Assembly: GCF_902652985.1 (NCBI RefSeq)
Contig: NC_047019.1
Coordinates: 14,318,097 to 14,382,096 of the forward strand
Length of the DNA: 64,000 nucleotides
Direction: 5' to 3'
Origin: Pecten maximus
Lineage: Eukaryota
The notes under the pieces are model-generated. The model was not told where the DNA came from. It was given only the letters and a program-made list of their open reading frames with translations, and did not search any database. Made by a program: the position numbers and the translations under genes. This document shows positions 1,507 to 50,428 of this stretch, piece after piece (positions within the stretch are counted from its first letter, which is position 1; every line of letters begins with the position of its first letter).

Positions 1507-2312
1507 GTAAGTCTAGCTGAAAATTTTCTGAATCAAATTATTTATATTATAAAACTAGATATCAAATAAGACAGTTAAATTGCTTTAACACTTTGAAAAA
1601 CACTTGAGATACAGGTTGTGTTTAATTTACAAGAAATGCTATAAGAACTCGGATACTATTTCCAAGGTATTGTTACTGTTCTATGTCCCATGGGTTTCTT
1701 TATAAAGTGAATTTCTATAAATATACACATATATAAAAGACTGCTATATAAAGCATTATTTTTTTTAAAGATATATGGCAGCCCCTGTACAAGTAAAGAA
1801 GCTGGAACCTGAATTGTTTACTATGCCGTTGAAGATGCAGAGTGCAACTGTGAGTTTATATGAATATCTAAATTTCACACTCTGGCCACCAATTAATACT
1901 GATTTATGTTTTAACATGGATTGGCATTCAATCAACTTGTTATTTATTAAAAAAATTTGTTAAAAAAATTGTTATTTGCAAGATTGTGTTCATGTTGACA
2001 ATACATAAAAATCTGATGGCTGTATGATAATGCTTAATTTATGCTTTTGAATTTTCTTATTACAATAAAACTTGCCTAATATGACCCCATAGGGTGAGTG
2101 ACCGTTTTGGTCACATTAGACAGGTTGTCAGAAAAGTCAAAGTTTTATGCTTTGAGAAAAAGCAGAATTTCACAGGAATATACATACAGTGTCAGATTTA
2201 GCAGGGTGTTGGAAAAGTCAGATGTCGTATTAGACAGATTTTACTGTATTAGAATAAACTATATATAGGATGTATACCAACATAAAAGTTTTCTAGATCA
2301 TATAATAGTAGA

Positions 2313-5300: not shown

Positions 5301-5395
5301 TATGACTGTGTCCATTTGTCAGACTTTGATGGACTATATACTAGATATGACTGTGTGTCCATTTGTCAGACTCTGATGGACTATGTACTAGGTAT
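2313..5395. repeat. Intronic minisatellite, unit 43-47 bp (gtgtccatttgtcagactctgatggactatgtactagatatgactgc), about 68 copies
   Basis: Regular tandem periodicity with ct and gc indel variants. Confidence 0.95.
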
Positions 5396-5498
5396 AACAT
5401 AATTTAATATATCAACTGTTAAATCATTTCATATGAGTTGGCCAGTTTGAAACATCAAATTCCATTCAAAAAATGAACGTGTTGGTGTCATGTTGCAG

Positions 5499-5599
5499 TA
5501 TGAAGAATATGCAGAACCTTGTGATATGTATGGGGATGTTGATATGGAAGTGGAACAATCAGAAGCTGCTCAAGCTGAAATTGAAATATCATATGCTAT
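5499..5599 (+). CDS. Host gene exon: YEEYAEPCDMYGDVDMEVEQSEAAQAEIEISYA
   Basis: tgttgcag acceptor, GTAAGT donor at 5600; phase-consistent with downstream exons. Confidence 0.55.
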
Positions 5600-6188
5600 G
5601 TAAGTGTTCTGTATCATATGGTATGTAATAATTCTGTAATACATGACAGGTAAGTGCTCTGTATTACATGACAGGTAAGTGTTCTGTATTACATGCTAGG
5701 TAAGTGTTCTATATATCATGCTAGGTGAGTGTTCTGTATAACATGCTAGGTACATGTAAGTGTTCTGTATTACATACCAGGTAAGTGTTCTGTATTACAT
5801 GCTAGGTAACTAAGTGTTCTGTATTACATGCTAGGTAACTAAGTGTTCTGTATTACATGCTATGTAAGTGTTTTATAATACATGCTAGGTAAGTGTTCTG
5901 TATTACAAACCAGGAAAGTGTTCTATAAGTGTTCTGTATTACATGCTAGGTAAGTGTTCTATATTACATGCTAGATAAGTGTTCTGTATTACATGCTAGG
6001 TAAGTGTTCTATATTACATGCTAGATAAGTGTTCTATAAGTGTTCTGTATTACATGCTAGGTAAGTGTTCTATATTACATGCTAGATAAGTGTTCTGTAT
6101 TACATGCTTGGTAAGTGTTCTATATTACATGCTAGGTAAGTGTTCTATATATCATGCTAGGTAAGTGTTCTGTATTACATGCTAGGTT
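5600..6188. repeat. 25-bp minisatellite (gtaagtgttctgtattacatgctag), about 23 copies, starting exactly at the exon donor
   Basis: Every unit carries the GTAAGT donor consensus and ends in AG. Confidence 0.9.
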
Positions 6189-6214
6189 ATCGCTATACTT
6201 CTCAGATAGTTCTT

Positions 6215-6610
6215 GATGGATCTTTGTCAGAAGGACCAAGGTGAGCTTATGCCATACTGTGGCATCCGTTGTCCGTCCGTCAACAATTAACTTCTTCTTC
6301 ATAACCACAGATGGGAATTTGACGAAATTTGGTCAAAAGCATCCCTATGGGTTGGGACTCAAAATTGTACAAATGGTGGGGCTGACCCCACAGGGACTTA
6401 GGGACGGGGCCAAACAGGGTCAATTTGGCTAAATTGATATAAACAACTTCTTCTCTGAAACTAAGCAGTGGATATCACTCATATTCACCTAGTAGCACCC
6501 CCTTGTGGTAGGGATTCAAAATTGTACAAATGGTGAGGCTGAGGGGCGTCATTCTTGTTTCATATTCTCATGAAACCAGGTGAGCGATACAGGCCCTTTG
6601 GGCCTCTTGT
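6215..6610 (+). mobile_element. Satellite-carrier family member with about 2 internal ~170-bp units
   Basis: 5' ggtgagcttatgcc..tccgttgtccgtccgtcaacaatt..cttcttcttcataacc; 3' aaccaggtgagcgatacaggccctttgggcctcttgtt; homologous to 26990-28562. Confidence 0.5.
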
Positions 6611-7169
6611 TCTTTTCAATCAATTTCAAAAATAGAGAAATGTTAAGAGAAGCTGGGAATAAGGAGTTTTGCGTGCTCTCAGTAATTTCTGATCGTTCAA
6701 TGGGCACCAAGATCCATTTGGGATCTGGGCCCAGTCGTTCAGAAGGTGATCAGCCTAATCACTGAATTAGTGAAAGTCTCATTTCTCCTTTAATTAAGAC
6801 CTTCTATGTGCATATTCCTTGAAATAGGCAGAAATAAAATGACTGAGGAGTGTTATATTTTCATAAACATTTTTGTCAAGTTAGTTTTACCAGAAACAAT
6901 TTTATCAAGATTTTAGAATTGTTGTTAAACTGTTGTTAGCCTATTCAACTTTTTAACAACTGGCCTCTGTTTTCAACAGAGGTATTGTGAGTACTTCAGT
7001 TCATCATCACACTAACCACTAATAATACCTAAGATTTGTTATTAACAAATCAATAGGTCTACTGTTAACAGTTTATAGATTTGCATTATAGTTCGGTTAA
7101 ATCATTGACAAGGTGACAGAACTTTTTATGATAAACAATAAATATTTATAAATGATACTTTTTTTCCAG

Positions 7170-7248
7170 AAGTTTGAATGTTGATGCTAGAAAGGAATTA
7201 AAAGAGCAGAAAAGTGAGCCTTTAACTTCATCATTAATGCGAGCCATG
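7170..7248 (+). CDS. Host gene exon: SLNVDARKELKEQKSEPLTSSLMRAM
   Basis: tttttccag acceptor, GTAAGT donor at 7249; phase 1 in, phase 0 out, matching the flanking exons. Confidence 0.55.
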
Positions 7249-7553
7249 GTAAGTTTATATTAATTTACATTTTACATTTCAGTTTCAAATTCACTCTATG
7301 TTACTCTGCATGGTCCCTTTATTGATCATTGATACTAACAAGATGGCTTTTAGATTGATCATCAAATCTGAACTGCACACCCTTTAATATTCAGACCTGT
7401 TTGTGTGAGTTGTGCCAGCATTTGTTTTTAAAAAGTTTTTGTCTACCAGTAATCTTGGCTAGAAAATTCCCAGCGTTCTCTTGATTTTGATATAATCATC
7501 ACACTTTAAAGTACACATGTTTTGCTGTATAGAATAAGATGCCGGGGTAAACA

Positions 7554-8454
7554 CAAATGTAATGGGTGTACAAAAATGTAATGGGTATACGAAAATGTAA
7601 TGGGTATACGAAAATGTAATGGATATACGAGAAATGTAATGGGTATACAAAAATGTAATGGGTATACAAAAATGTAATGGTTATACGAAAATGTAATGGA
7701 TATACGAGAAATGTAATGGATATACAGAAATGTAATGGGTATACAAAAACGTAATTATACAAAAATGTAATGGGTGTACAAAAATGTAATGGGTATACGA
7801 AAATGTAATGGGTGTACAAAAATGTAATGGTATACAAAAATGTAATGGGTATACGAAAATGTAATGGGTATACGAGAAATGTAATGGGTATACAAAAATG
7901 TAATTATACAAAAATGTAATGGATATACGAGAAATGTAATGGTTATACAAAAATGTAATTATACAAAAATGTAATGGGTATACAATGTAATGGATATAAA
8001 AAAATGTAATGGTATACAAAAATGTAATGGATATACAGAAATGTAATGGGTATACGAAAATGTAATGGATATACGAGAAATGTAATGGATATACAAAAAT
8101 GTAATGGTATACAAAAATGTAATGGGTATACAGAAATGTAATGGGTATACAAAAATGTAATTATACAAAAATGTAATGGGTATACAAAAATGTAATGGAT
8201 ATACGAGAAATGTAATGGATATAAAAAAATGTAATTATACAAATATGTAATGGGTATACAAAAATGTAATGGGTATACGAAAATGTAATGGATATACAGA
8301 AATGTAATTGGTATACAAAAATGTAGTTATACAAAAATGTAATGGGTATACGAAAATGTAATGGATATACGAGAAATGTAATGGATATACAAAAATGTAA
8401 TGGGTATACAAAAATGTAATGGATATACAGAAATGTAATGGGTATACAAAAATG
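7554..8454. repeat. 19-21-bp minisatellite (aaatgtaatgggtatacra)
   Basis: Tandem units; the same array resumes at 16098-16215 on the far side of the LINE+satellite insertion. Confidence 0.9.
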
Positions 8455-8865
8455 TTCCGAGAGGATTACTACCTTGCCGTGGTCCGGAAGCTTGAGTGTT
8501 TCAATGAAACTTTGGGCTTTGCTGGCCAGAGCGTTATAAGTTCTTGTTAGGTCAAACCATGCCAGAGAGGTCAAAGTTGAGGAACCAGACCAAAAGTAAT
8601 CTAACCCAGTAGCTCAATTTTGAGCCAAACCATTTGCCGTGGTTTGCGTCCCGTAAATCCGGGGAAGAAGGTCCTGGTGGTTGAGTAATTTGGATGTTGA
8701 TTATAAATCATGCCAGTCTGCAACACACGACTTTGGCTTCAAACTCGGACTAGACGGGTGGCAATATGGTCCCTGTATTTTCAATCGGCTGGAGAACCAA
8801 ACTGCTGCTTTCTCTTTCGAGTATACTATTTTATGTAACCCTGACACTTTCGACACTGGAAACCC

Positions 8866-10251
8866 GTGCTAACAAAAGTGTCCCCTAGTTGGGCTCCGTG
8901 GTGGGTGGGGACAAAAATAGTGAACAACTTCTACATACATATGGGTACAAACGATCAAAATGACACAAAACGCAAAGGCGAGTCATCAAACACAACAGAC
9001 ACAGCACAAACAAAAACAATACCTAGTCAAACCTCACAAGCAAAAACTATACCAAATCAAACCCAAACTTCGATCAAAACTACATCTGGAACTGGAGCCT
9101 CTCCGCTGTTCCCTCACTTCCTAACCATGTCCTCCAGAGATAAGGGCAAGAAAACTTCCGAGTTATCACCCATCCTGTTGAGGAAGGGAATTCAGGGAAT
9201 AGCGGGTGAGGTAAAATCCATCAAGCCAATGAGATCTGGTATTCTCCTCATTGAGGTTTACCGCCGTCAACAGGCGATGAACCTCATGGGTACTTCCAGT
9301 TTTGCCGGTCTCAATGTCGAGGTGAAGCCCCATGCTTCACTGAATTCTTCAAAAAGTATAATCAGGTGCCCCGCATTGAACAACGACTCCGAGGCCGACA
9401 TACTGGAGTACTTCCAACATGTTGAGAACATCCATGTTTCGGAGGTTAGGCGGATCCGCTCCAGACGCAATGGTCAAACAATCAACACAAATACATTCAT
9501 TCTCACGTTCGGAGTGCCGCAGCTACCTCAGACGGTAACAATAGGTTACCAGAGGTACGGTGTCTCCGCCTACATCCCCAACCCTCTGCGATGCCGTAAC
9601 TGTCAAAAGTACGGACATCACGAGGACAGATGTGGACGGAACACTGTCTGCGAACACTGCGGACGTGAAGGCCACACAGACAACGACCAATGCAACATTG
9701 TTGGCAAGCGTTGTATAAACTGCCAGGGTGACCATGCGGCCTCATCTCGAGACTGTCCTGCCTGGAAGAAGGAGAGGGAGATCCTCCGGTTGAAATATAC
9801 CGAGAATATTTCCTTTCCTGAAGCCAGGAGGATTGTCGAGAGTAAGGACAGCACAAACCCCACGTTTGCCACAATTGTCAAACAGTCGACAGCACGTACC
9901 ATCTCGGTGAAGGATACCTCTATCCAAGCATTTGAGGACCAGTCTGCCTGGGGTCCAGATGCTCCCGAGATGGCAAACCTACCAAAATACAAACACTTAA
10001 TTGGGAGAGCCTCACGCTGGAGTGCCACCCCCAAACCTCCAGAGCCATCAAAACCCATACAACTCGCACCACCATCAATCGTACCATCGCCATCGAATAC
10101 AAAAACAATCGTAAACGAACGGAAATCTAAGACAGGTGCCGACCACCATAGACAACGAACTCTGTCACAGCCGTCGGTCGACACCTCCAGAATTACCAAG
10201 CGACCTAGCTGCCACTACACCCCCTCAAGATCAAAGAACACCAAAATCTAG
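8866..10251 (+). CDS. LINE ORF1, gag-like nucleic-acid-binding protein with 3 CCHC zinc knuckles
   Basis: CRNCQKYGHHEDRC, CEHCGREGHTDNDQC, CINCQGDHAASSRDC; the true start may be the internal Met near 8944. Confidence 0.8.
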   Translation: MLTKVSPSWAPWWVGTKIVNNFYIHMGTNDQNDTKRKGESSNTTDTAQTKTIPSQTSQAKTIPNQTQTSIKTTSGTGASPLFPHFLTMSSRDKGKKTSELSPILLRKGIQGIAGEVKSIKPMRSGILLIEVYRRQQAMNLMGTSSFAGLNVEVKPHASLNSSKSIIRCPALNNDSEADILEYFQHVENIHVSEVRRIRSRRNGQTINTNTFILTFGVPQLPQTVTIGYQRYGVSAYIPNPLRCRNCQKYGHHEDRCGRNTVCEHCGREGHTDNDQCNIVGKRCINCQGDHAASSRDCPAWKKEREILRLKYTENISFPEARRIVESKDSTNPTFATIVKQSTARTISVKDTSIQAFEDQSAWGPDAPEMANLPKYKHLIGRASRWSATPKPPEPSKPIQLAPPSIVPSPSNTKTIVNERKSKTGADHHRQRTLSQPSVDTSRITKRPSCHYTPSRSKNTKI

Positions 10252-13953: not shown

Positions 13954-16077
13954 CCCACCATCATCAGATGGTGGGCTGTTCAAATCGCCCTGCGTCCGTG
14001 GTCCGTCCGTCCGTCCGGCCGTCCGTCCCTCCATCCCTCCGTCCGTAAACAATTTTTGTTATCGCTATTTCTCAGAAAGTACTGAAGGGATCTTTCTCAA
14101 ATTTCATATGTAGGTTCCCCTTGGTGCATAGTTATGCATATTGCGTTTTGAGACCAATCGGATAACAACATGGCCGACAGGCAGCCATCTTGGATTTTGA
14201 CAATTGAAGTTTGTTATCGCTATTTCTGAGAAAGTACTGAAGGGATCTTTCTCAAATTTAATATGTAGGTTCCCCTTGGTGCCTAGTTATGCATATTGCG
14301 ATTTGAGACCAATCGGAAAACAACATGGCTGACAGGCAGCCATCTTGGATTTTGACAATTGAAGTTTGTTATCACTATTTCTGAGGAAGTGCTGAATGGA
14401 TTTTTCTGAAATGTCATATATAGGTTTCCCTTGGTGCTTAGTTATGCATATTGCGTTTTGAGACCAATCCGAAAACAACATGGCCGACAGGCAGCCATCT
14501 TGGATTTTGACAATTGAAGTTTGTTATCGCTATTTCTGAGAAAGTACTGAAGGGATCTTTCTCAAATTTAATATGTAGGTTCCCCTTGGTGCCTAGTTAT
14601 GCATATTGCGATTTGAGACCAATCGGAAAACAACATGGCTGACAGGCAGCCATCTTGGATTTTGACAATTGAAGTTTGTTATCGCTATTTCTGAGAAAGT
14701 ACTGAAGGGATCTTTCTCAAATTTAATATGTAGGTTCCCCTTGGTGCCTAGTTATGCATATTGCGATTTGAGACCAATCGGAAAACAACATGGCTGACAG
14801 GCAGCCATCTTGGATTTTGACAATTGAAGTTTGTTATCACTATTTCTGAGGAAGTGCTGAATGGATTTTTCTGAAATGTCATATATAGGTTTCCCTTGGT
14901 GCTTAGTTATGCATATTGCGTTTTGAGACCAATCCGAAAACAACATGGCCGACAGGCAGCCATCTTGGATTTTGACAATTGAAGTTTGTTATCGCTATTT
15001 CTGAGAATGTACTGAATGGATCTTTCTCAAATTGCATATGTAAGTTTCCCTTGGTGCCTAGTTATGCATGTTGTGTTTTGAGACCAATCTGAAAACAACA
15101 TGGCCGACAGGCAGCCATCTTGGATTTTGACAATTTAAGTTTGTTATCACTATTTCTGAGAAAGTACTGAATGGATCTTTCTGAAATTTCATATGTAAGT
15201 TTCCCTTGGTGCCTAGTTATGCATATTGCGTTTTGAGATCAATTGGAAAACAACATGGCCGACAGGCAGCCATCTTGGATTTTGACAATTGAAGTTTGTT
15301 ATCGCTATTTCTGAGAAAGTACTGAATGGATCTTTCTGAAATGTCATATATAGGTTTCCCTTGGTGCTTAGTTATGCATATTGCGTTTTGAGACCAATCC
15401 GAAAACAACATGGCCGACAGGCAGCCATCTTGGATTTTGACAATTGAAGTTTGTTATCGCTATTTCTGAGAATGTACTGAATGGATCTTTCTCAAATTGC
15501 ATATGTAAGTTTCCCTTGGTGCCTAGTTATGCATGTTGTGTTTTGAGACCAATCTGAAAACAACATGGCCGACAGGCAGCCATCTTGGATTTTGACAATT
15601 TAAGTTTGTTATCACTATTTCTGAGAAAGTACTGAATGGATCTTTCTGAAATTTCATATGTAGGTTTCCCTTGGTGCCTAGTTATGCATATTGCGTTTTG
15701 AGATCAATTGGAAAACAATATGGCCGACAGACCGCCATCTTGGATTTTGATAATTGAAGTTTGTTATCTCTATTTCTCAAAGTACTGAATGGATCTTTCT
15801 CAAATGTCATAAGTAGGTTCCCCTTGGTCCCTTGTATTGCATTTTTGGACCAGTCTGTCCTGAAAACAACCTGGCAAACAAACAGCCATTATCGTTAAAT
15901 CTCAAATTTCTTATATAGCTAGGATTCCCTTGTTTGAAAAGTACTGGAGGGATGTCTCAATTTGCACAGATTAGTAAAATGAAGGGAAAAGTAGAGAAAA
16001 GATCAATCTGACATGGAACCTATGAAGATCATTCAATGGTGGGCGCCAAGATCCCTCTGGGATCTCTTGTTTAATAG
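13954..16077 (+). mobile_element. Satellite-carrier module abutting the LINE ORF2 stop: 5' palindrome agcccaccatc/gatggtgggct, GTCCGTCC repeats, a 155-bp satellite, and a 3' ...ctctgggatctcttgtt
   Basis: The 5' TAGCCCACC resembles the carrier 5' end TTAGCTCACC; the 3' tail resembles GGGCCTCTTGTT. Confidence 0.5.
14060..15790. repeat. 155-bp satellite, about 11 units, with a 465-bp (3-unit) higher-order repeat (HOR)
   Basis: The caattgaagtttgtt landmark recurs every 155 bp; identical minus-strand track ORFs at 14287, 14752 and 15217 lie 465 bp apart. Confidence 0.9.
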
Positions 16078-18408: not shown

Positions 18409-18649
18409 GTAGGACTTTGAGATTTTGTTATTTACAATGTGCATACAAAAGTTACATAACATCTCCAGCATATGTAAGCTTAATTTGGATATACAGAATT
18501 TGTAATTGTCATCATGTTAAAATCATTATTTTAATATCATAGATTATTATTAACCATCTACTTCAATAAGCTGGTACTTACAGAATAATTTCTATGGACC
18601 AGTTTTAGAAAAATAAAACTGATTCTGGAGTCTTATGGACTTCCCTCAT

Positions 18650-21600
18650 TTGAAAAGTGTAATGAACTTTCTTCACACTCTAAGTGAATTGGACTTTCAT
18701 CATATTATAAACGTAGTGGCTTTCCCTCACATTATAAGTGTATTAGACTTCCCTCACATAATGTGTATAATGGACTTCCCTCACATTATATAAGTGTAAT
18801 GGATTTCCCTCACATTATAAGTGTATTGGACTTCCCTCACATTATAAGTGTATTAGACTTCCCTCACATGATACATGTAAGTGTATTGGACTTTCCTCAC
18901 ATAATAAGTGTATTGGACTTCCCTCACATTATAAGTGTATTGGACTTCCCTCACATAATAAGTGTATTGGACTTCCCTCACATTATAAGTGTATTGGACT
19001 TCCCTCACATAATATGTGTAATGGACTTCCCTCACATTATATAAGTGTATTGGACTTCCCTCACATTATAAGTGTATTGGACTTCCCTCACATAATATGT
19101 GTAATGGACTTCCCTCACATTATAAGTGAATTGGACTTCCCTCACATGATAAGTGTATTGGACTTCCCTCACATTATAAGTGTATTGGACTTTCCTCACA
19201 TGATTAGTGTATTGGACTTCCCTCACATTATATCAGTGTATTGGACTTCCCTCACATAATATGTGTAATGGACTTTCCTCACATTATAAGTGTATTGGAC
19301 TTCCCTCACATTATAAGTGTATTGGACTTCCCTCACATTATATAAGTGTATTGGACTTCCCTCACATAATATGTGTAATGGACTTTCCTCACATTATAAG
19401 TGTATTGGACTTCCCTCACATTATAAGTGTATTGGACTTCCCTCACATTATATAAGTGTATTGGACTTCCCTCACATTATAAGTGTATTGGACTTCCCTC
19501 ACATTATAAGTGTATTGGACTTCCCTCACATTATAAGTGTATTGGACTTTCATATTATAAGTGAATTGGACTTCCCTCACATTATAAGTGTATTGGACTT
19601 TCATCATATTATAAACGTAGTGGCTTTCCCTCCCTTTATAAGTGTATTGGACTTCCCTCACATTATAAGTGTATTGGACTTTCATCATATTATAAGTGAA
19701 TTGGACTTCCCTCACATTATAAGTGTATTGGACTTTCATCATATTATAAACGTAGTGGCTTTCCCTCCCATTATAAGTGTATTAGACTTCCCTCACATTA
19801 TAAGTGTATTGGACTTCCCTCACATGATAAGTGTATTGGACTTCCCTCACATTATAAGTGTATTGGACTTCCCTCACATTATAAGTGTATTAGACTTCCC
19901 TCACATTATAAGTGTATTGGACTTCCCTCACATTATATAAGTGTATTGGACTTCCCTCACATGATAAGTGTATTGGACTTCCCTCACATTATAAGTGTAT
20001 TGGACTTCCCTCACATTATAAGTGTATTGGACTTCCCTCATATTATAAGTGTATTGGACTTCCCTCACATGATAAGTGTATTGGACTTCCCTCACATGAT
20101 AAGTGTATTGGACTTCCCTCACGTTATAAGTGTATTGGACTTCCCTCACATTATAAGTGTATTGGACTTCCCTCACATTATAAGTGTATTGGACTTCCCT
20201 CACATTATAAGTGTATTGGACTTCCCTCACATTATAAGTGTATTAGACTTCCCTCACATTATAAGTGTATTGGACTTCCCTCACATTATAAGTGTATTGG
20301 ACTTCCCTCACATTATATAAGTGTATTGGACTTCCCTCACATTATAAGTGTATTGGACTTCCCTCACATTATAAGTGTATTGGACTTCCCTCACATTATA
20401 AGTGTATTGGACTTCCCTCACATTATAAGTGTATTGGACTTCCCTCACATTATAAGTGTATTGGACTTCCCTCACATTATAAGTGTATTGGACTTCCCTC
20501 ACATTATAAGTGTATTGGACTTCCCTCACATTATAAGTGTATTGGACTTCCCTCACATTATAAGTGTATTGGACTTCCCTCACATTATAAGTGTATTGGA
20601 CTTCCCTCACATTATAAGTGTATTGGACTTCCCTCACATTATAAGTGTATTAGACTTCCCTCACATTATAAGTGTATTGGACTTCCCTCACATTATAAGT
20701 GTATTGGACTTCCCTCACATTATAAGTGTATTGGACTTCCCTCACATTATAAGTGTATTGGACTTCCCTCACATTATAAGTGTATTGGACTTCCCTCACA
20801 TTATAAGTGTATTGGACTTCCCTCACATTATAAGTGTATTGGACTTCCCTCACATTATAAGTGTATTGGACTTCCCTCACATTATAAGTGTATTGGACTT
20901 CCCTCACATTATAAGTGTATTGGACTTCCCTCACATTATAAGTGTATTGGACTTCCCTCACATTATAAGTGTATTGGACTTCCATCACATTATAAGTGTA
21001 TTGGACTTCCCTCACATTATAAGTGTATTGGACTTCCCTCACATTATAAGTGTATTGGACTTCCCTCACATTATATAAGTGTATTGGACTTCCCTCACAT
21101 TATAAGTGTATTGGACTTCCCTCACATTATATAAGTGTATTGGACTTCCCTCACATTATAAGTGTATTGGACTTCCCTCACATTATAAGTGTATTGGACT
21201 TCCCTCACATTATATAAGTGTATTGGACTTCCCTCACATTATAAGTGTATTGGACTTCCCTCACATTATAAGTGTATTGGACTTCCCTCACATTATAAGT
21301 GTATTGGACTTCCCCTCACATTATAAGTGTAATGGACTTCCCTCACATAATAGGTGTAATGGACTTCCCTCACATTATAAGTGTATTGGACTTCCCTCAC
21401 ATTATAAGTGTATTGGACTTCCCTCACATTATAAGTGTATTGGACTTCCCTCACATTATAAGTGTAATGGACTTCCCTCACATTATATAAGTGTATTGGA
21501 CTTCCCTCACATTATAAGTGTATTTGACTTCCCTCACATTATATAAGTGTAATGGACTTCCCTCACATTATAAGTGTATTTGACTTCCCTCACATTATAT

Positions 21601-23212
21601 AAGTGTATTGGACTTCCCTCACATTATAAGTGTATTGGACTTCCCTCACATTATAAGTGTATTGGACTTCCCCTCACATTATAAGTGTAATGGACTTCCC
21701 TCACATAATAGGTGTAATGGACTTCCCTCACATTATAAGTGTATTGGACTTCCCTCACATTATAAGTGTATTGGACTTCCCTCACATTATAAGTGTATTG
21801 GATTTCCCTCACATTATAAGTGTATTGGACTTCCCTCACATTATAAGTGTATTGGACTTCCCCTCACATTATAAGTGTAATGGACTTCCCTCACATTATA
21901 AGTGTAATGGACTTCCCTCACATAATAGGTGTAATGGACTTCCCTCACATTATAAGTGTATTGGACTTCCCTCACATTATAAGTGTATTGGACTTCCCTC
22001 ACATTATAAGTGTATTGGACTTCCCTCACATTATAAGTGTAATGGACTTCCCTCACATTATATAAGTGTATTGGACTTCCCTCACATTATAAGTGTATTT
22101 GACTTCCCTCACATTATATAAGTGTAATGGACTTCCCTCACATTATAAGTGTATTTGACTTCCCTCACATTATATAAGTGTATTGGACTTCCCTCACATT
22201 ATAAGTGTATTGGACTTCCCTCACATTATAAGTGTATTGGACTTCCCTCACATTATAAGTGTATTGGACTTCCCCTCACATTATAAGTGTAATGGACTTC
22301 CCTCACATAATAGGTGTAATGGACTTCCCTCACATTATAAGTGTAATGGACTTCCCTCACATTATAAGTGTAATGGACTTCCCTCACATTATAAGTGTAT
22401 TGGACTTCCCTCACATTATAAGTGTATTAGACTTCCCTCACATTATAAGTGTATTGGACTTTCCTCACATTATAAGTGTAATAGACTTCCCTCACATTAT
22501 AAGTGTATTGGACTTCCCTCACATTATAAGTGTATTGGACTTCCCTCACATTATATAAGTGTAATGGACTTCCCTCACATTATATAAGTGTATTGGACTT
22601 CCCTCACATTATAAGTGTAATGGACTTCCCTCACATTATAAGTGTATTGGACTTCCCTCACATTATAAGTGTATTGGATTTCCCTCACATTATAAGTGTA
22701 TTGGACTTCCCTCACATTATAAGTGTATTAGACTTCCCTCACATGATAAGTGTATTGGACTTTCCTCACATTATAAGTGTAATGGACTTTCCTCACATTA
22801 TAAGTGTAATGGACTTCCCTCACATTATAAGTGTATTGGACTTCCCTCACATTATAAGTGTATTGGACTTCCCTCACATTATAAGTGTATTGGACTTCCC
22901 TCACATTATAAGTGTATTGGACTTCCCTCACATGATAAGTGTATTGGACTTCCCTCACATGATAAGTGTATTGGACTTCCCTCACATTATAAGTGTATTG
23001 GACTTCCCTCACATGATAAGTGTATTGGACTTCCCTCACATTATATGAGTGTATTATACTTCCCTCACATGATAAGTGTATTAGACTTCCCTCACATTAT
23101 AAGTGTATTGGACTTTCCTCACATTATAAGTGTAATAGACTTCCCTCACATTATAAGTGTATTGGACTTCCCTCACATGATAAGTGTATTGGACTTCCCT
23201 CACATGATAGAT
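18650..23212. repeat. 27-bp minisatellite (acttccctcacattataagtgtattgg), about 165 copies, 4.5 kb, intronic
   Basis: Strict 27-bp periodicity with 29-bp tatataagtg variants; produces long artifact ORFs on both strands. Confidence 0.95.
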
Positions 23213-40191: not shown

Positions 40192-41590
40192 TTAAGGATT
40201 TTTAGGTCACCTGAGACGAAGTCTCAAGTGACCTATTCTAATCGCCTTTTGTCCGTCGTCGTGCGTCGTGCGTCGTCCGTCGTGCGTTCGTAAACTTTTT
40301 ACATTCTCGACTTCTTCTCCAAAACCACTTAACAAAATTCAATGAAATTTGGCAGAAAGTTTCTATGGCTGAAGGTCAACCAAAATTGTGAATTATATGG
40401 TCCCCACCCCCCAGGGGCCTGAGGGGTGGGGCCAAAAAGGGTCAAATTGACTAAAACTTCAAAAATCTTCTTCTCTACTCTCAGATATGGTGGAGTCAAA
40501 CACTCTTTATAGATGAAAGGGTCTTGTGGTGCTTTACCAAAATTGTGAATTGCATGACCCTGGGGTCTCACGTTTGCCCCTGGGGAGGGGGTAAACTTTA
40601 CTATAGTTTATATAGGGAAATCACATTTTTGACTATTATTTGTTTGATTTGTATTGGAATTCATTCTAACTTGTATCAAATTATCGGCATGGGATGACAG
40701 TTTGATGGTATGTACATGTTGGCCCTAATTGACCCCCAGGGGCTGGTGGGCGGGGCCAAAAAGGGTCAAATTGACTAAAATTTCAAAAATCTTCTTCTCT
40801 ACTCTCAGATGTGGTAGAATCAAATACTCTTCCTAGATGGAAGGGTCTTAAGGTGCTTTACCAAAATTGTGAATTTCATGACCCTGGGGTCTCACGTTTG
40901 CCCCTGGGGAGGGGGTAAACTTTAGTATAGTTTATATAGGGAAATCACATTTTTGACTATTATTTGTTGGATTTCTATTGGAATTCATTCTAACTTGGTT
41001 CAAATTATCAGCATGGGATGACAGTTTGATGGTATGTACATGTTGGCCCTGGTTGACCCCCAGGGGCTGGTGGGCGGGGCCAAAAAGGGTCAAATTGACT
41101 GAAATTTCAAAAATCTTCTTCTCTACTCTCAGATATGGTAGAATCAAATACTCTTCATAGATGGAAGGGTCTTAAGGTGCTTTACCAAAATTGTGAATTT
41201 CATGACCCTGGGGTCTCACGTTTGCCCCTGGGGAGGGGGTAAACTTTACTATAGTTTATATAGGGAAATCACATTTTTGACTATTATTTGTTTGATTTCT
41301 ATTGGAATTCATTCTAACTTGGTTCAAATTATCAGCATGGGATGACAGTTTGATGGTATGTACATGTTGGCCCTGGTTGACCCCCAGGGGCTGGTGGGCG
41401 GGGCCAAAAAGGGTCAAATTGACTGAAATTTCCAAAATCGTCTTATCAACTATATGTTAGAATCAAATACTCTTCATAGACTGACCCCATTAGGACTGAT
41501 GGGTGGGGCCAAAAAGGGTCAATTTAGTTGGCCGAAATATTTCAAATCTCAGGTGACCGTTAAGGCCCTTTGGGCCTCTTGTTTCATTTT
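40192..41590 (+). mobile_element. Satellite-carrier element with about 3.3 units of a ~360-bp satellite
   Basis: 5' ttaggtcacctgagacgaagtctcaagtgacct hairpin plus gtccgtcgtcgtgcg repeats; 3' caggtgaccgttaaggccctttgggcctcttgtt; units homologous to 1-470. Confidence 0.55.
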
Positions 41591-41968
41591 AGTGAGACTG
41601 GCAGGAAATGTAATTTTAAAATTAATTGGTTATTCAATTTGTTGGTAAACACTATACATGATACATAGTTTATTTTCCAAAATTGTGCCCACATAGGGGT
41701 ATTATCAAATACATGTACATAATATGAGAGGAAGTATTCAATGGTAAACAAATTAATACAAACTTTAAATATGATAAAACATGCCTCTGATGATTCACTC
41801 CTTGTCATAGGTATAGAATTCCTGCAGACTGAAAGGTCTTCTGAATGCAAATTAATATTTCTGTTTTGTTTATGTTTAATATAATTGTTTTATTTATTGT
41901 TTACTTTTATATTTGATAGAGGAACTCAATTTTATATTTCTAACATACACTCTTACATTGTATATATA

Positions 41969-42116
41969 GAGAATACATGGTCAGTGTCTTAAAATATAAG
42001 CTGTATTTTGGCGAGGGTAAAGAAAGACAAAAGTGGCGAGCCTTGGCGAGCCACTTTTGTCTTTCTGTCCCGAGCCAAAAATACAGCTTATATTTTAAGA
42101 CACTGACCATGTATTC
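41969..42116. repeat. Foldback hairpin with ~72-bp arms and a 4-bp loop
   Basis: gaatacatggtcagtgtcttaaaatataagctgtattttggcgag... mirrored around ttgg; followed by a separate 15-bp inverted pair (tatttatcctgcaac at 42117 and gttgcaggataaata at 42338). Confidence 0.8.
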
Positions 42117-42835
42117 TATTTATCCTGCAACAGACATAAAAATAATCATCAGAAATAATCATTTTGAAGTGAAACGGTGTCAAAAATGACAGAAATATGT
42201 TCGCCTTTTAAACGTAGTTTCATTTTGAAGTAGGTCAGTCGAACTGACGCACGTGCTATGATTCCAAAATACAGCTGTTTTTCGTCACTGCCGTATACAG
42301 CAAAAATATATACGGTGGGTGTATTCCGACAATGCGGTGGCAGTTGCAGGATAAATATACATTTGAATGTCTTAGATTTTATTCACATATATAAAAAAAA
42401 AAATTCGTTCAGGATTTTTTGCAATCAAATTCCTGACATTTTCTGTGGGTTTGAATTGTCTTACAGCTTACATTAAAAGTTAATTGTAAGGTGTATTTCC
42501 TTTTAGTGAAGTGATGAAGTTTTAAATACCATTACTGTATAATATGAAATTGAAAGTTATAGTAATTTATGATGTTAAGTTTTTAATTTGTTGTGTTAAT
42601 TGTGTTGCAGTTTTTCACCCAGTTTAATTCATTAATAATGAAATCAGGTATTTTACTGATTATATTCTAAAAGAATTCACTGTAATTTGATATAATATAT
42701 CATTATCTTGATTACTCTATTTTCCCATAACCACACGTCCAGCTCTCCTTTGTCTAGAATTAGATGGACCACTTTAAAGATACTGGTAAAACATGGTGGT
42801 GAGATGTCTGGAAGTAAAAAATATATAACAATATA

Positions 42836-42866
42836 TGAGCCGCCGGCTGGCATTTAGGTCCTTAAG
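42836..42866. repeat. Left 31-bp terminal inverted repeat
   Basis: Exact reverse complement of 48407-48437. Confidence 0.85.
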
Positions 42867-43289
42867 GCATAAAAAATCAAAATTGAGTTTTTGGTATTTT
42901 CATAATCTAGAGATAATGGCGGTTAAATTGGTGTAAAAATAGCTTTGGTGTGTCAATAACTGACGATTTGACGCTACATTGAATATATGTCGCATTTGGT
43001 ATGCTAGATGACGTTGGCGTTAATAACGACGTCATTTTACCAGTGCCATTTTTGACGTCATTTTTTGCAACGTCATTTATCACAGACAGTTGCATAATGC
43101 TTTGCTGTTACAGGTCTTGAATTGAAGACTGTTATTTTCTAATTGTTATTATATCTATAGTCATTTAAAAAGAAAAAAGTCCTTTTTCAGTTGTAATGAT
43201 TCATTTATTTACAAGGATAAAATTTGTGATTCACATATCAACTTGAACACAAACATGTATCTTGCAATAAACAGGTAACATCCCTTGTA

Positions 43290-43650
43290 ATTACACACAA
43301 AAACAATCAGTCACATCCCTTACACACAAAAACAATCAGTCACATCCCTTACATACAAAAACAATCAGTCACATCCCTTACCTAATACAAAAACAATCAG
43401 TCACATCCCTTACACACAAAAACAATCAGTCACATCCCTTACATACAAAAACAATCAGTCACATCCCTTACATACAAAAACAATCAGTCACATCCCTTAC
43501 CTAATACAAAAACAATCAGTCACATCCCTTACCTAATACAAAAACAATCAGTCACATCCCTTACCTAATACAAAAACAATCAGTCACATCCCTTACCTAA
43601 TACAAAAACAATCAGTCACATCCCTTACCTAATACAAATAACAATCATTT
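43290..43650. repeat. 29-34-bp minisatellite (acaaaaacaatcagtcacatcccttac[ctaat]), about 11 copies, inside the transposon
   Basis: Tandem units. Confidence 0.85.
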
Positions 43651-43872
43651 TATATTTTATTTGGTAGAAACAGATTGCAAAGTGAACTCCAGGACTCCAT
43701 CAGGATTATATTGTTACAATTAATTACATGTAGTGTAAGAAGATAAAACATTTATTTTGAAATTGTATTTAACTGTATCCTAACAAGCAATGCTCATTTC
43801 ATAATATAAAATAAAAGCATGAGTACAGTATTTAAGTTTTCATCAATAACAATTTTGATCTCAACTTTCAGT

Positions 43873-44114
43873 TCATTCTTCTGTGTGGGTGGGTCTAGAG
43901 GTGGGCTGTGGGACAGTGGGCAGGGGACATAGAAGGTCCTTAGACGGATCCTTTACAAAAGGCCTGATATTTTTGTACAGGTACCATGCACGTTCTGCGG
44001 AAAAACCTTTTGCCTCCAGTCTCACTGGCAAACCCTGTGGAATAATCTTTCCCCTCTTCACAAGCCTCACTGGCGTTGTCTCCCCGTCAACACCTTTTTT
44101 AACAGTAACCATTC
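43873..44114 (-). CDS. Transposase-like gene terminal exon: (G)MVTVKKGVDGETTPVRLVKRGKIIPQGLPVRLEAKGFSAERAWYLYKNIRPFVKDPSKDLLCPLPTVPQPTSRPTHTEE*
   Basis: tttctttctttcag acceptor; track ORF 43873-44112; stop TGA. Confidence 0.6.
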
Positions 44115-44379
44115 CTGAAAGAAAGAAACAGGAATGGCATGTTGTAATTGAACTTAGTTTTGAAAGGGATACATGTACACATAAAAATCAAAAAACCTGT
44201 ACAAAACCATTTTATTTTTAAATCGGATAAAAATTCTGCATGCCCCACATACCAAATACATCATTAGAATCAGACTCATAAATCTAGCGGAATTACCCAT
44301 GGAGGTAATTGATAATGAAAGCGCAGTACATTATATAAATTAAATGGATTGAAATATGTAAATATAGCAGTACATGTAC

Positions 44380-44710
44380 CTGAAGTGGTGGAAGCAAAGT
44401 GAAAGTGATGGTATTTCCCAATACCAGGAACCGCTCTAAATACAGGCTTGAAGAATTGTTTCCAGTCTCTCCAGATCCACGAATTTGGTGACATCTCACT
44501 GTATAAATCTGCCTGGTTATGTGTGGATGAAGCATGAATTGTCATCTTCAGGTCAGACAAACTATCCACATCATTGCGTCTGATTTTCCTTCGGGCAATA
44601 CCAAACATCCCATCCACAAGACAACGGGCATGATATGGCTTCATGAAATGTAGATGGATGTCATCATGATATCCATTTGCCACTCTCCAAGCCAGATAGC
44701 TTGTGACAAC
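44380..44710 (-). CDS. Transposase-like gene exon 6: VVTSYLAWRVANGYHDDIHLHFMKPYHARCLVDGMFGIARRK...WIWRDWKQFFKPVFRAVPGIGKYHHFHFASTTS
   Basis: tttttatgattcag acceptor, GTACAT donor; same frame as track ORF 44276-44719. Confidence 0.6.
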
Positions 44711-45144
44711 CTGAATCATAAAAAAATAAAATTAGGTTCATTGTATAAAGCAGTGTAAGAACCTGTATTATTAAGTTTATTATATTACTGGCCTGCTTTC
44801 TACTAGCATGTCAAAAATAAGACACCTGTATATAATAACACTATTGTGACTTCACAATTACAAAATTTTGGAGAAATCGGAGATGAGTGGGTATCAACAT
44901 TCAACAGCTTCAAAAATATGTAACTTATAATGTCATAATGATTATGTAATGCTGAATAATTGTTTCAGTACAAAGAAACATACAGCCTGCTCCTTATATT
45001 TGCATAACTACCAGTTTTGTGATAAACAGAAACTTACACTGCTGACTTTTTTGAATGAATTCAGTTCAACTTGGCAAATGATCTTAACTGATGTGCCACA
45101 CTCCTTTAAGGTGTTTTCTTAACTCAACAACAAATATTCCATAC

Positions 45145-45367
45145 CTGATTCTTATTTTGGCCACCACAATTGTCTGCATTCAAGTACACAGTTTTTTCTC
45201 CTTCCCCATGGTATTCGAAGAAGTGGTGCAACATAGATACAACAGCATTGGCCGAGTGGCTCTGGGCACCATCCAGACCAATGGACTGATCCTCGCCAAA
45301 CAAATAATTTGTTTGCAGGGACCGACCATCATTGCAAATACCAAATAGATTAGCTTTATATGGTGAC
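45145..45367 (-). CDS. Transposase-like gene exon 5: ...GICNDGRSLQTNYLFGEDQSIGLDGAQSHSANAVVSMLHHFFEYHGEGEKTVYLNADNCGGQNKNQ (candidate catalytic Asp block)
   Basis: ttttctttcag acceptor, GTATGG donor; phase-consistent. Confidence 0.6.
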
Positions 45368-45595
45368 CTGAAAGAAAAAGCTGTACAATATCAGAGAAGC
45401 AGTGTTCAAGATCATTTCTTTTAATTTCAATCCGATATTTTTTTATTCTGATATTCAAGATTGAAACTTTACATCTTTAATACATGAATTACATTTTATG
45501 AAATATGATCCAATACTACAGAGATTTAATGGTTTTAAATGTAACCTGTTTTACCTACTGCTTCTCCCTTTTAACAGACTTAAATTGTTTTTTAC

Positions 45596-45846
45596 CTGAA
45601 GTACAAAGCTCCTTCCTGTCTGCAATGACTGGGCAGAAGTACACTTTGAGCATAATCAAATGTGTAGTGGACATCTTTTAGGTCCATGGATGTTGGAGGA
45701 ACAGGAACAGTAGACTTCGGATGACCATGAAGACCTGCAATAGCAGCATGACATTTTTGTCGATAATGGTCTCTCTCCTTTTGGGCTGATGAAATGTGTT
45801 CTGCAAAGTCTGTGCTAGCCTCCATTTTATCTGCCTCAGTGATGGC
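45596..45846 (-). CDS. Transposase-like gene exon 4: ...HYRQKCHAAIAGLHGHPKSTVPVPPTSMDLKDVHYTFDYAQSVLLPSHCRQEGALYF
   Basis: ctag acceptor, GTAAAA donor; same frame as track ORF 45592-45825. Confidence 0.6.
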
Positions 45847-46150
45847 CTAGATACAATATATGTACAAAAATCTTATCTTAACATGTCATCAAAATGTTCT
45901 ATATACATCGTACATACAAAATGTATATAATGAACCGATAAAAATGTATAACAAGATGTTTAAAGCAATAAAAGTTTTCTTTGTTATTTTACTAATAAAT
46001 TCATACCATTATTGTTATGAATGAATATGAATGTAGAATTATTACAATATCACTATCTGTTTATCTAAAATTAGAACTCAAATATATTAAGATATTTTGG
46101 TTTTAATGTCCATGGATATTAAATTAGACTTGTTTTGATTAGGTTCTTAC

Positions 46151-46286
46151 CTTCTGTATCCGATTCCTAAAGGATTCACATTTGTGACATACATCTGTCT
46201 TGCAGGACATGAACTGGATGTGTGGGAGACACTGGTGCCATATTCTTCTGAAAGTGGTCTCAGATAGGCATCGGTTTTCTGTTTCA
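46151..46286 (-). CDS. Transposase-like gene exon 3: Cys/His-rich ETENRCLSETTFRRIWHQCLPHIQFMSCKTDVCHKCESFRNRIQK
   Basis: ttttcaacag acceptor, GTAAGA donor; phase-consistent. Confidence 0.55.
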
Positions 46287-46680
46287 CTGTTGAAAATAGA
46301 TATGTCACTAGATCATAAAATTGGAGGGTGACGATTATAAACAATACTAAAACCAAATAATTCAATGTCATTTCCAAAGTTTGAAATATATTATTTTCAT
46401 TTTAACAAATAATTTGGACAAATTCTAAGATATCTAGTGATGGAAGATAATTTATTAGCAGCTTGTTTGTGTTTATAATTAAAGCATACATAGTTAAAAA
46501 AAATATTCTTATAGCTAAACCAATTTATAAAGGCATTATTTCAAATGTTTTATGATTATAAATTAAATGTATCTGTAGACAATATTTAATTCATAACAGT
46601 GAAAATTGACACTGGTTTATCATGGATTGCTGTATGAATTGATTACCAAGTACTTTTTTCATTATGAGGATAATACTTAC

Positions 46681-46806
46681 ATACATACTTGGCTGTATTT
46701 CTTATGGACAGATAGATAGGTTTCACTTCCAGGTAAATATATTGGTGGAAAGCTGTCCCGTCCACGTGGTGCAGCAGGTTGGGGCAATCCCATCTCATCT
46801 GCATAC
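46681..46806 (-). CDS. Transposase-like gene exon 2: (R)YADEMGLPQPAAPRGRDSFPPIYLPGSETYLSVHKKYSQVC
   Basis: ttatatgttag acceptor, GTAAGT donor; the phase joins exon 1. Confidence 0.6.
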
Positions 46807-47276
46807 CTAACATATAAATGTAACTGCATTAAAAAATAATTAACATCAAAATTCATTTCCAAATACATGTATCTCATTGTGCTGATAGTAAAATATGTAT
46901 AATGGAAATTTCGAAACAGACAAGGTCTGTATCAAACTGTGACCTATTACAATTGAATGTATGTAAATAAATAATATAGCTATTATATATTTCAAAATAC
47001 ATGTACCCGGTATGTTTATATTTAATCAAGGTGACTTGAGATGATTTTTTTAAATTAAGTTTTGCACATGTTAAGTTAAATTACTAACAGTTGTATTATT
47101 TATTTATTTTTCCCCAGCAAAAGAGAACAAAATACAGACTGCACAGATAGTTTGATGTTAATCATGACATGCACGACAAGTATGAATATTCTACATACAG
47201 AACTATGGGTTTCATTTTTATTTTTTTTTTAATGTTAAATACCTGTGTATAAGTACACATACGGCACAGCACTTAC

Positions 47277-48043
47277 CTTGAAATAAACTGGACAACTTGT
47301 TGAACATTATCATAGGTCACTGCATTTTTGGGTTTTTTCCCTGTATTTCCATGTATCCGTGGAACAGCACCATTCTTGACGAAATGGGCCCTGATGTTTT
47401 TCAAGTAATGTGCATTTATGTTATTAACATAAAGGAAACAAGCCTTGCAAACACTTGTGTTCTGGAATTGGTAGTCAAAGCGATGCCGTCTGACGTTAGT
47501 TTGACCATGCATTCCCCTTGTCATGCCACATGCCTGGAGCTGTCCAATAATTAACATGTCCCTGCCATCTCTCTCCATTCCCTGCACATTCAATCTGTTA
47601 TCTTTGATATCCATATTGGGAAATTTGGACAGACACCCCTTCTTACATTTACGCTGTGCGTCACGTTCGTCCGAGTTATTTTCGTCGTCATCATCATCAT
47701 CATCAACCTCGTTGTCATCACTACGTAGTGTGTCTTGATCAGAATCATTTTCTGTGTCCCTTTCAACGTCATTTCTGATAAAAACTCTCATCCGAGTATG
47801 TAGAATCGGCGAATTAATAACGCTAATGCCGTTACTCACATCATCATCATCATTATCACTCTCGATGTCATAGTCAAAATCAACATCTTCATCCTGATTA
47901 CCGGAGACAGAACCCACCTCTTCAGCTGTACCACTGTTTACCCGACTTGTACACGGAAAGAAATGGCTAAAATCATCGTCTATCTCACTTGCTAAATCGC
48001 TATCACATCCGACTACGTTAAAATTTGGCGGAAGAGACATCAT
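47277..48043 (-). CDS. Transposase-like gene exon 1: acidic N-terminus, then a C-x3-C...C-x2-C...AVP THAP-like zinc-finger region (RKCKKGCLSKF...VCKACF...GAVPRIHGNTGKKP)
   Basis: Track ORF 47273-48043; GTAAGT donor immediately after FIS(R); a CCGGAAGT ETS-like motif ~80 bp upstream of the ATG. Confidence 0.7.
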
Positions 48044-48406
48044 ATAAGATTTCTTGATGCGTTAGACCTAAACACTCCCATCTGCCATCTTCGTAGCGAA
48101 TGTAAACAACTACGTAAATACCGGAAGTGTGTTCGGCAGAAAACGGGGAAACCCCATTCGTGTCGATATTTTTGTTGAATAAACACTTTTATTTACATTT
48201 ACCGTTAATGTTATTGAATGGAAAATTAACCGACATATCTAAAGTTTAAGGACAGGTATTTAAAGTTCATCTATAACAAAGTATATCAGCTGCATTTTGT
48301 GTTTTTGCAACGCAAGTGGGATTCCCGTTTTCGCGCGAAACGGAAATAGAATGGAAATAATAACTCTGACGGAATTCCCTTTTTTCTCCGTTTTCATTGG
48401 ATAGAA

Positions 48407-48437
48407 CTTAAGGACCTAAATGCCAGCCGGCGGCTCA
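48407..48437. repeat. Right 31-bp terminal inverted repeat
   Basis: Exact reverse complement of 42836-42866. Confidence 0.85.
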
Positions 48438-50428
48438 ATTATAAACCCTGGTAAATACTAGCAGCGATATACCACCTCACTAGAGAGATTAGTCTTTTCT
48501 TTAGCTCAATGGTTGATGTGTAAGATTATAGTAAGTTTGAGGCATTGGAATAAATGTAAATCATCATGATCCTTTGTGATAGAAGACAATGTTTCAAAAT
48601 TTTAAGACAATTGTTGCTGTAACAATCAATTCTTGACTTCATCACGAAGTTATTATAACAACCCCTGATGTAAATCTACAGCTAGTTTGTATGGTAGAAC
48701 TGGCTTGGAAGCGCATCTTCATGCCTAGCTTGTGTGAACCCCAACACTTTTCATTCAACAAGCCCGATAGTGCATCAGATATTGCAGAGATAAGATTATT
48801 TTAACACTACAACAATTTTTTTTAAATATTCTCTGATGGAATTACAAAGACATTTTACCATTGTCTTCAGTTACAAGAAGGGTGAATGGGCTATTTAGTG
48901 TATTCAGATAAATGAAATTTACTTCAGGACCTTTTATTAAATTGATAACTGTCAGACTGTTAAAACGGTTGAAGGACTTTCAGTAAATTCTGATAGATCA
49001 GACATAGATGTAATGCTTATTGCTATTTTGTTATGTGACTTTCAAAGTTATGCAGGTGAATTTCTTGGCAGATCTTGACTGTGACATAGAAGGTGTTTAC
49101 AATCATCATGATATAGCGCATTTTGTGATTGTAACAGTGAAAATAAGGAAGAAATTTAACTTCCTATGACGGTTATTAAGGTAGGCAAATAAAACGTAGC
49201 TTACAGCGTGTTTGTTTGAACTATTAATATTATCTGTGATAAACCTGAATGTCATGATATGTTGCATTATTATTGCTAACACACTTTTGATTGTACTGTC
49301 GCTTATATATATGTAAACTTTATTGATTTTACAACAATTACGAAACAAAGTTATATTAACTTATATTAATCACACTTGGTGGCCCGGTTGGAAGCGCGCG
49401 AGGGGTCTTACTGTGGGAGGAAACTGAAGTGCCCGGGGAAAACCCACGTGGTCGGGCAGGTGACCCCATACCTTTTCACGTCCGATCGGGGAAATGAACC
49501 AATGTGCCACCCGACCACCCTATGTAGTAACTAAAAAGACACAAAGCAGGCTATTGTTGGTTAGTGACGGCGACGTTTAATATTTATGTATAAAATAACA
49601 TAGGTAAAACTGATATATCACAGATGTCCACTTGTTTCATCATACAGCAATATATCCAATGTACCCACAGGTTAAATGCTAAATGATGTCTGCTGATCAA
49701 ATTTGACTTATGTTTAGCGTAATAGCAATAAGAGTCAATAGGTTGTGATATCAATTTATTTTTGAAATCACAAACGTAGTAGGACCAATAGAATGTCTTT
49801 CAATTCATTTCAAAAAAAGAAAATATATTTATTTTTTGTAATGGAACATTTTTTCCTGGCATATTTTATGGCCTATTGACGGGACTTTAGTCCAATTCGT
49901 TTTTAAGATTTTTTAGATTAACAATGCAGAATTAAAAAATATTGACAACGCCAATTGTACAAACATTGCATTTAACAGTTGAACTGCTAACAGAGATTGC
50001 TGAAATCAAAATGCAATATTTGCTTATTTTGCACTTTTTTCGATATTTGTGTATGTATTAATAAATCAATAAAAACAAAAATTCCTCTTTCTTGTGATTT
50101 GAAATAGTCGACCAATATACTGCATGATTGAATATATATGCTACCATTGAGCTTCAGATCACACAGTACAAGTTCCTCTGTGAGCTCATGTGATGGCAGT
50201 TTTAGGAGGTTACATTTATGTTCACATATATAATGGATAGGTGGAGAACTACGTACAGATATTTCAGGATCGTTTGATTTCAAAACATTTCGTAGTGTCT
50301 GTAAGTTGAGTTAAACATTGGAATTGTCATTTGAATTGACTAATACTCCTAAAAAATAAAGAGTTCTAAATTTGATCTTTGATATATATTTTTTCCATCT
50401 AGAAAAAACAATCGCATTATTGGTGCTC

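Follow-up and report, generated by a model that had tools for sequence, protein, structure and literature searches.

The segment 42836-48437 of a 64-kb stretch of the Pecten maximus genome (contig NC_047019.1; the whole stretch is referred to here as the window) is, we are confident, a full-length autonomous Sola1 DNA transposon, belonging to the Sola superfamily that was reportedly described by Bao, Jurka and Kapitonov in 2009. A preliminary description of this DNA had recognised a DNA transposon bounded by terminal inverted repeats (TIRs) and carrying an intact, intron-containing transposase gene, a view strengthened by the RNase H-fold core found here, and had left the superfamily unassigned. 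We place the element in Sola1 because reference Sola1 cores match its family profile and the Pfam family DUF7869, and because its relatives carry target-site duplications (TSDs) that are 4 bp long and of the form AWWT. It is a new and apparently young member of an already described but rare group.

The ends of the element are marked by the 31-bp TIR TGAGCCGCCGGCTGGCATTTAGGTCCTTAAG, which occurs exactly twice in the window:

Left TIR, 42836..42866, plus strand: flanks the gene on its 3' side; matches the right TIR perfectly, with 0 expected by chance.
Right TIR, 48407..48437, minus strand: on the 5' side of the gene.

The pair shows 0 mismatches over 31/31 bp and 100 shuffles gave 0 matches, in line with the perfect repeats first reported. 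Following the Sola1 convention, the element proper begins at G42837, T42836 being the final base of the flanking AWWT tetranucleotide; a 2-bp TSD with T...A termini is indistinguishable from a 4-bp AWWT TSD with G...C termini, and we used the published convention. No second copy, fragment or paralogous empty site of the element was found within the window.

The gene was rebuilt independently by six-frame translation and a scan for GT/AG junctions, which returned the seven minus-strand exons and the 691-residue product proposed earlier, with a coding sequence of 2076 nt and zero internal stops. All six introns are GT-AG and fit the consensus well, five of the donors being of the GTAAG/GTAAA/GTATG type and the acceptors of the polypyrimidine-AG type, and the conceptual protein is identical over 691/691 residues to P. 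maximus RefSeq XP_033740046.1 (LOC117327250). The exons, with the residues that matter below, are as follows:

Exon 1, 47277..48043, minus strand: aa 1-256; ATG at 48043, acidic disordered N-terminus, C133/C137/C199/H231 and a G-x-x-PR-x-HGN block.
Exon 2, 46681..46806, minus strand: aa 256-298.
Exon 3, 46151..46286, minus strand: aa 298-343; invariant C331-x2-C334 (DVCHKCE).
Exon 4, 45596..45846, minus strand: aa 344-427; first Asp of the candidate catalytic triad, D407 (codon 45657-45655; strand beta1, HYTFDYAQ).
Exon 5, 45145..45367, minus strand: aa 427-501; candidate catalytic D492 (codon 45174-45172), Sola1 signature ADNCGGQNKN.
Exon 6, 44380..44710, minus strand: aa 502-612; H528; D534 (codon 44614-44612), a candidate for the third catalytic position, on helix 532-545.
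Exon 7, 43873..44114, minus strand: aa 612-691 and stop TGA 43875-43873; conserved C-terminal helix FSAERAWYLYKNIRPF.

Compared with 68 homologues, 6/6 junctions fall inside collinear alignment blocks, without any query-relative inserted column at junctions 1, 4 and 5. The fifth junction cleanly divides an invariant block into GGQNKNQ and VVTSY. Of the homologues with which the junctions are collinear, at least five (P0006, P0016, P0023, P0028, P0112) are each encoded in the fetched loci by one unbroken open reading frame (ORF); this gives the predicted exon model good support. The window copy looks coding-competent.

The N-terminus of the protein is acidic, as had been noted (41 D/E versus 7 K/R in residues 1-130), and the motifs quoted in the preliminary description are present. 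Pfam gave a single match, to DUF7869 (aa 463-616, E=1.9e-19), a family carried by all 69 aligned relatives; neither THAP nor a named transposase family was matched by the 691-aa protein, even at E<=10. Sequence searches of the PDB with the 691-aa protein and with the family profile returned nothing meaningful. In the alignment D407 (HYTFD), N493, G496-Q-N-K-N500 and H528 are invariant, and D492 and D534 reach at least 90% conservation. The D492-D534 interval measures 42 aa, lacks an insertion domain and holds no conserved C/DxxH motif in the alignment consensus. An AlphaFold2 model built on the alignment reached a mean predicted local distance difference test (pLDDT) score of 83.7, with values >90 through the core, and its fold is closest to those of retroviral integrases and Mos1. 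The modelled elements follow the order beta(402-408), beta, beta(430-439), beta(444-451), alpha(466-479), beta(486-491), alpha(497-512), beta(518-523), alpha(532-545), which in the model is the RNase H topology, with three Asp residues sitting where catalytic residues belong. D407 on beta1, D492 after beta4 and D534 on the next helix form a candidate DDD triad, in which D534 would probably act as the third catalytic residue. The catalytic blocks named in the preliminary description missed D407 (HYTFDYAQ) and included FSAERAWYLYKN, which belongs to the conserved C-terminal helix and is not catalytic. Upstream of the core, conserved Cys/His ligands are spaced C133-x3-C137-x61-C199-x31-H231 and are joined by the further invariant pair C331-x2-C334; this helical region may bind zinc and DNA. 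A single family member (1/69) weakly matches PF07592 (DDE_Tnp_ISAZ013; E=0.0036), the 'transposase 36' family of bacteria, which is linked to Zator; the match is a possible hint of a remote link and is not significant.

The criteria for Sola1 were taken from papers citing Bao et al. 2009 and from the supplement that accompanies Majorek et al. 2014. From that supplement we used as reference RNase H cores Sola1-1_AP, a second aphid Sola1 (A. pisum XP_003249065), Sola2-1_HM, a sea-urchin Sola2, Sola3-1_HM and a nematode Sola3. In both Sola1 cores DUF7869 was the sole Pfam family (E ~1e-5; 25.5 and 24.8 bits), and it gave no match in the Sola2 and Sola3 reference cores. The 69-sequence family profile behaved in the same way, scoring 42.9 bits against Sola1-1_AP, 34.1 bits against the second Sola1 core and 5.4 bits (not significant) against a Sola2 core, with no match to Sola3. 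Judged from these matches, it is DUF7869 that forms the catalytic core in transposases of the Sola1 group; no paper turned up when the literature was searched for this family. The AWWT TSD has been described as 'a hallmark of the Sola1 transposons' (PMC3845634), and Sola1 is recorded in bivalves, where curated elements have a mean length of 5445 bp (PMC10294476).

The TSD rule was read from relatives of the Pecten element. Three copies of the intronless relative P0023 (36% identity) with identical proteins lie in one assembly (L001-L003), and their pairwise comparison delimits a 2.8-kb unit with ends TGAGCCTGCG...CAGGCTCA, the tip being the same as in Pecten. With the element starting at G, the flanks of the three copies are AAAT/AAAT, ATAT/ATAT and AAAT/AAAT. 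Further matched TSDs were found in other relatives, namely ATAT (L004), ATAT and AATT (L005 and L006, respectively) and ATAT (L008). When the sample was enlarged with 80 metagenome loci, 13/14 copies on long contigs (>=20 kb) had matched 4-bp AWWT TSDs (AAAT, ATAT, AATT or ATTT), the exception being L007 with AATT/ATAT, where the inner 36-bp TIR with the family motif was chosen over ~600-bp inverted repeats around the ORF. On short contigs (~23 copies) 11 were matched, 9 were unequal but with both flanks AWWT (in every case ATAT together with AAAT or ATTT) and 3 were irregular; unequal flanks are to be expected there, because the flanks of different copies are easily joined when short reads are assembled across a repeat present in many copies.

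The TIR architecture is likewise common to the family. A tip starting with G (GAGCC, GTGAC, GGGG or GGCGG) is followed ~12 nt inward by a block similar to (G)AAAAGGNNCC(T)TAAGG(TG), which is kept across transposases just 30-40% identical. The GAGCC/TGAGCC tip is common to the Pecten element and relatives L001-L006; the Pecten inner block reads ...GGCATTTAGGTCCTTAAGGCA, and the combination of a GAGCC(GCC) tip with an ...AGG(N)(N)CC(T)TAAGG block also occurs in relatives. An exact scan of the metagenome contigs with the TIR gave zero matches.

Two of the relatives' loci have features of their own. In L007, inverted repeats of ~600-690 bp at 3289-3908 and 9145-9836 (87% identity) enclose the Sola1 relative encoding P0028; they hold tandem TATATATAAACACCGCGGGA-like units, are flanked by CTGA/CTGA and may be the ends of a larger element with a nested Sola1 copy. 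In L002, a ~7.4-kb nested insertion (2562-9936) lies near the 5' end of the intronless Sola1 relative, and its called genes include an rve-type integrase fragment.

Several points weigh against the Sola1 assignment or against the completeness of the case. The Sola1 references are 125-aa trimmed cores ending before the third Asp, and their scores of 25.5 and 24.8 bits fall slightly short of the 26 bits set as gathering cut-off for DUF7869, which would not be surprising for trimmed fragments. The TIR of a published insect Sola1 miniature inverted-repeat transposable element (MITE), GGACCGTTTATTT..., has no obvious resemblance to the Pecten TIR (PMC3845634). The TIRs and flanks of the exact P. 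maximus family are known from one copy, and RefSeq XP_033740046.1 is a computed model whose splicing is predicted. Finally, the window copy itself lacks a matched TSD, although both of its flanks fit AWWT:

Left flanking tetranucleotide ATAT, 42833..42836, strand not applicable: fits AWWT.
Right flanking tetranucleotide AATT, 48437..48440, strand not applicable: fits AWWT; differs from the left.

The preliminary description had suggested here an imperfect 8-bp flank matching at 6/8 positions. The left flank is ACAATATA and not AATATATA, so that the comparison with ATTATAAA gives 5/8, and the TSD of the family is 4 bp. A 6-bp TSD (AATATA/ATTATA, 5/6) had looked possible by eye until the relatives showed their 4-bp rule, and duplications of 2, 3 and 8 bp were also considered for this copy.

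The mismatch bears on the history of this copy only and is compatible with the Sola1 assignment. Its most likely cause is ectopic recombination between copies after insertion or a mis-join in the assembly. In the wider form of this explanation the window copy would be a recombinant between two Sola1 copies (by ectopic recombination, inversion or gene conversion) or an assembly chimera, with flanks from two AWWT sites, and we give it a little less than an even chance. It accounts for flanks that are each AWWT yet unequal; another family copy (LOC117327181) is available on the same 51.4-Mb chromosome sequence; and unequal but AWWT flanks recur in 9 to 12 of the ~23 short metagenome contigs, where chimeras are expected, and in 1/14 long ones. 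Set against this, the TIRs are perfect, the ORF is intact, no other mark of rearrangement is seen and a chromosome-scale assembly should resolve a 5.6-kb repeat. It is also conceivable, if improbable, that the unequal AWWT flanks (ATAT/AATT here, AATT/ATAT in L007) are a footprint of how Sola1 integrates and not an artefact of rearrangement. An excised element might, for example, carry nucleotides of the donor flank, as in a piggyBac-like overhang, and if these paired with another AWWT target, the resulting heteroduplex would resolve into non-identical 'duplications'. Nothing in the data requires a mechanistic cause of the unequal flanks.

The preliminary description had left open whether the element was recently active or domesticated. 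A cluster at 90% identity contains 18 P. maximus gene models, and the 15 listed come from at least 13 loci on at least 9 chromosome-scale sequences. Four copies are full-length and nearly identical (684-691 aa, 97.3-100% amino acid identity to the window copy), and the remaining listed P. maximus models are truncated and 94-99.6% identical. A search of 1.84 billion representatives of 50%-identity clusters with the family profile returned 20,953 clusters when the threshold was E<=1e-3 and 2,338 when it was E<=1e-30. We favour recent activity over domestication because of the at least 13 near-identical paralogous loci (94-100% amino acid identity, four of them full-length); these comparisons argue for a family recently amplified in the P. 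maximus genome, a selfish autonomous element within a very large family. A host gene derived from a transposase that merely kept its inverted repeats is very unlikely. Its intact, intron-containing ORF is annotated as a gene in RefSeq, as such a host gene would be, but near-identical paralogues, intact and truncated, are scattered over many chromosomes, the TIRs are perfect, and many of the ~21,000 clusters in the family are encoded by short TIR-bounded units with TSDs. Domestication is thus largely refuted. Among the P. maximus proteins, XP_033737385.1 (P0123; outside the window) bears the RefSeq name 'nucleolin-like isoform X2', yet it consists of the acidic N-terminal 296 aa of the transposase; it is a misannotated, truncated transposon fragment.

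Other superfamilies fare no better than domestication. That the element is a divergent Tc1/mariner-type (DD41D-like) transposon has very little probability: the likeness is at the level of fold only, the TSD is a 4-bp AWWT and not TA, and no Transposase_1, DDE_1 or DDE_3 Pfam match was found. Least credible of all is a THAP-bearing P, hAT or Kolobok element, to which the preliminary description had pointed by way of a THAP-like finger and the P/hAT-like ends. It is true that TIRs of 31 bp are also found in the P element and that the C-x3-C...C...AVP pattern is loosely reminiscent of the finger. THAP is a C2CH finger, C-x2-4-C-x35-53-C-x2-H, with a C-terminal AVPTIF box (Pfam PF05485), and elements of the P, hAT and Kolobok groups make 8-bp or TTAA duplications. 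In the Pecten protein the finger is ruled out by the lack of a profile match, which extends to all 69 relatives at E<=0.01, by a ligand spacing of C-x3-C-x61-C-x31-H and by C202, which is not conserved (A, V or T in most family members). P and hAT are ruled out by window flanks agreeing at just 5/8 positions in AT-rich DNA, by the 4-bp TSD of the relatives, by the 42-aa spacing from second to third catalytic residue without an insertion domain and by the absence of a Pfam match; Kolobok is ruled out by flanks that are AWWT and never TTAA and by the missing C/DxxH motif.

Taken as a Sola1 transposon, the element could work as follows. The single gene LOC117327250 (7 exons, 691 aa) encodes a DDD transposase composed of an acidic disordered N-terminus, a helical Cys/His region, an RNase H-fold core (DUF7869) and a conserved C-terminal helix. 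This transposase would bind the 31-bp TIRs and then excise the element by cut-and-paste chemistry; insertion would take place at AWWT tetranucleotides by a 4-bp staggered cut, whose repair would duplicate AWWT.

The non-coding parts of the element include two further features:

Left subterminal TGACG/CGTCA cluster, 42961..43078, strand not applicable: ~125-240 bp inside the element; three ACGTCATTT copies and two cAMP-response-element (CRE)-like GACGTCA sites.
Internal 32-bp minisatellite, 43297..43647, strand not applicable: 11.4 copies, 96% matches.

The TGACG/ACGTCATTT repeats had been reported earlier as lying within the left TIR; they are present, at the more internal position given above. 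Seven of the window's 43 TGACG/CGTCA occurrences sit within 150 bp in this cluster, which is a candidate for accessory transposase-binding or CRE-like sites. The subterminal regions are asymmetric, the right one (48100-48400) carrying AAACGG/CCGTTT-type repeats and the left one TGACG/ACGTCATTT. The minisatellite lies between the poly(A) signal of the gene (43756) and the left end, in a stretch that also holds a second AATAAA/ATTAAA site at 43661, and is passenger sequence.

Outside the element, the window is unusually rich in long minisatellite and satellite arrays (2309-5395, 7545-8455, 14055-15832, 18636-23209, 27128-28370, 31206-33242, 33539-36765 and 40408-41480), among them 168 copies of a 27-bp unit, 68 of a 45-bp unit, 83 of a 39-bp unit with strong GC skew and 51 of a 40-bp unit. 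Because the arrays at 27128-28204 and 40408-41480 both carry a CCAGGGGC...GGGCGGGGCCAAAA.GGGTCAA motif, they may belong to one repeat family. A near-perfect palindrome at 41964-42123, ~700 bp to the left of the element, has 79-nt arms that are 86% complementary around a 2-nt spacer and may be a foldback or MITE-like sequence.

These results call for a correction of the annotation: LOC117327250 and at least 12 other P. maximus 'uncharacterized protein' loci (one of them 'nucleolin-like') are Sola1 genes and not host genes. They also give a meaning to Pfam DUF7869, as the core in which Sola1 transposases carry their catalytic residues, in a family whose profile is matched by ~21,000 clusters at 50% identity, and the unusually conserved TIR motif should be useful to transposon biologists. 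To a specialist the findings will be unsurprising, and their value is mostly one of housekeeping. To our knowledge no Sola transposase has been biochemically characterised, and our PDB searches found no solved structure of one. The Pecten element is apparently intact and recently amplified, its transposase has been modelled with confidence and a candidate DDD triad is defined; it is therefore a reasonable choice if a Sola transposase is to be studied biochemically for the first time, or as the basis of a transgenesis tool in molluscs. If unequal flanks did reflect the way in which Sola1 integrates, the intact ORF, perfect TIRs and near-identical copies would make it the first experimentally tractable, possibly still active Sola transposon.

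Among known systems, the Drosophila P element resembles the Pecten element in the 31-bp length of its TIRs, in a transposase gene interrupted by introns and in an RNase H-fold core. Tc1/mariner elements (Mos1, Sleeping Beauty) and retroviral integrases differ in having no sequence-level relationship to the Pecten family and another N-terminal region, and Tc1/mariner elements duplicate TA where the Pecten family duplicates AWWT. Sola2 and Sola3 are closer, with an RNase H-fold DDD/E core, a D-x-C/G-x-G-Q-like motif at the second Asp (TDGCAGQYKN in Sola2) and 4-bp TSDs, but their cores have neither a significant family-profile match nor DUF7869. From described Sola1 elements, such as Repbase Sola1-1_AP of the pea aphid, the Pecten family differs in its six introns, in a TIR unlike that of the insect MITE and in the unmatched TSD of the Pecten copy. 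With them it shares a homologous core, DUF7869, the DNCGGQN(K/R)N and GHT signature and the DDD triad, together with TIRs, 4-bp AWWT TSDs in the relatives of the Pecten element and a length of 5.6 kb, near the bivalve mean.

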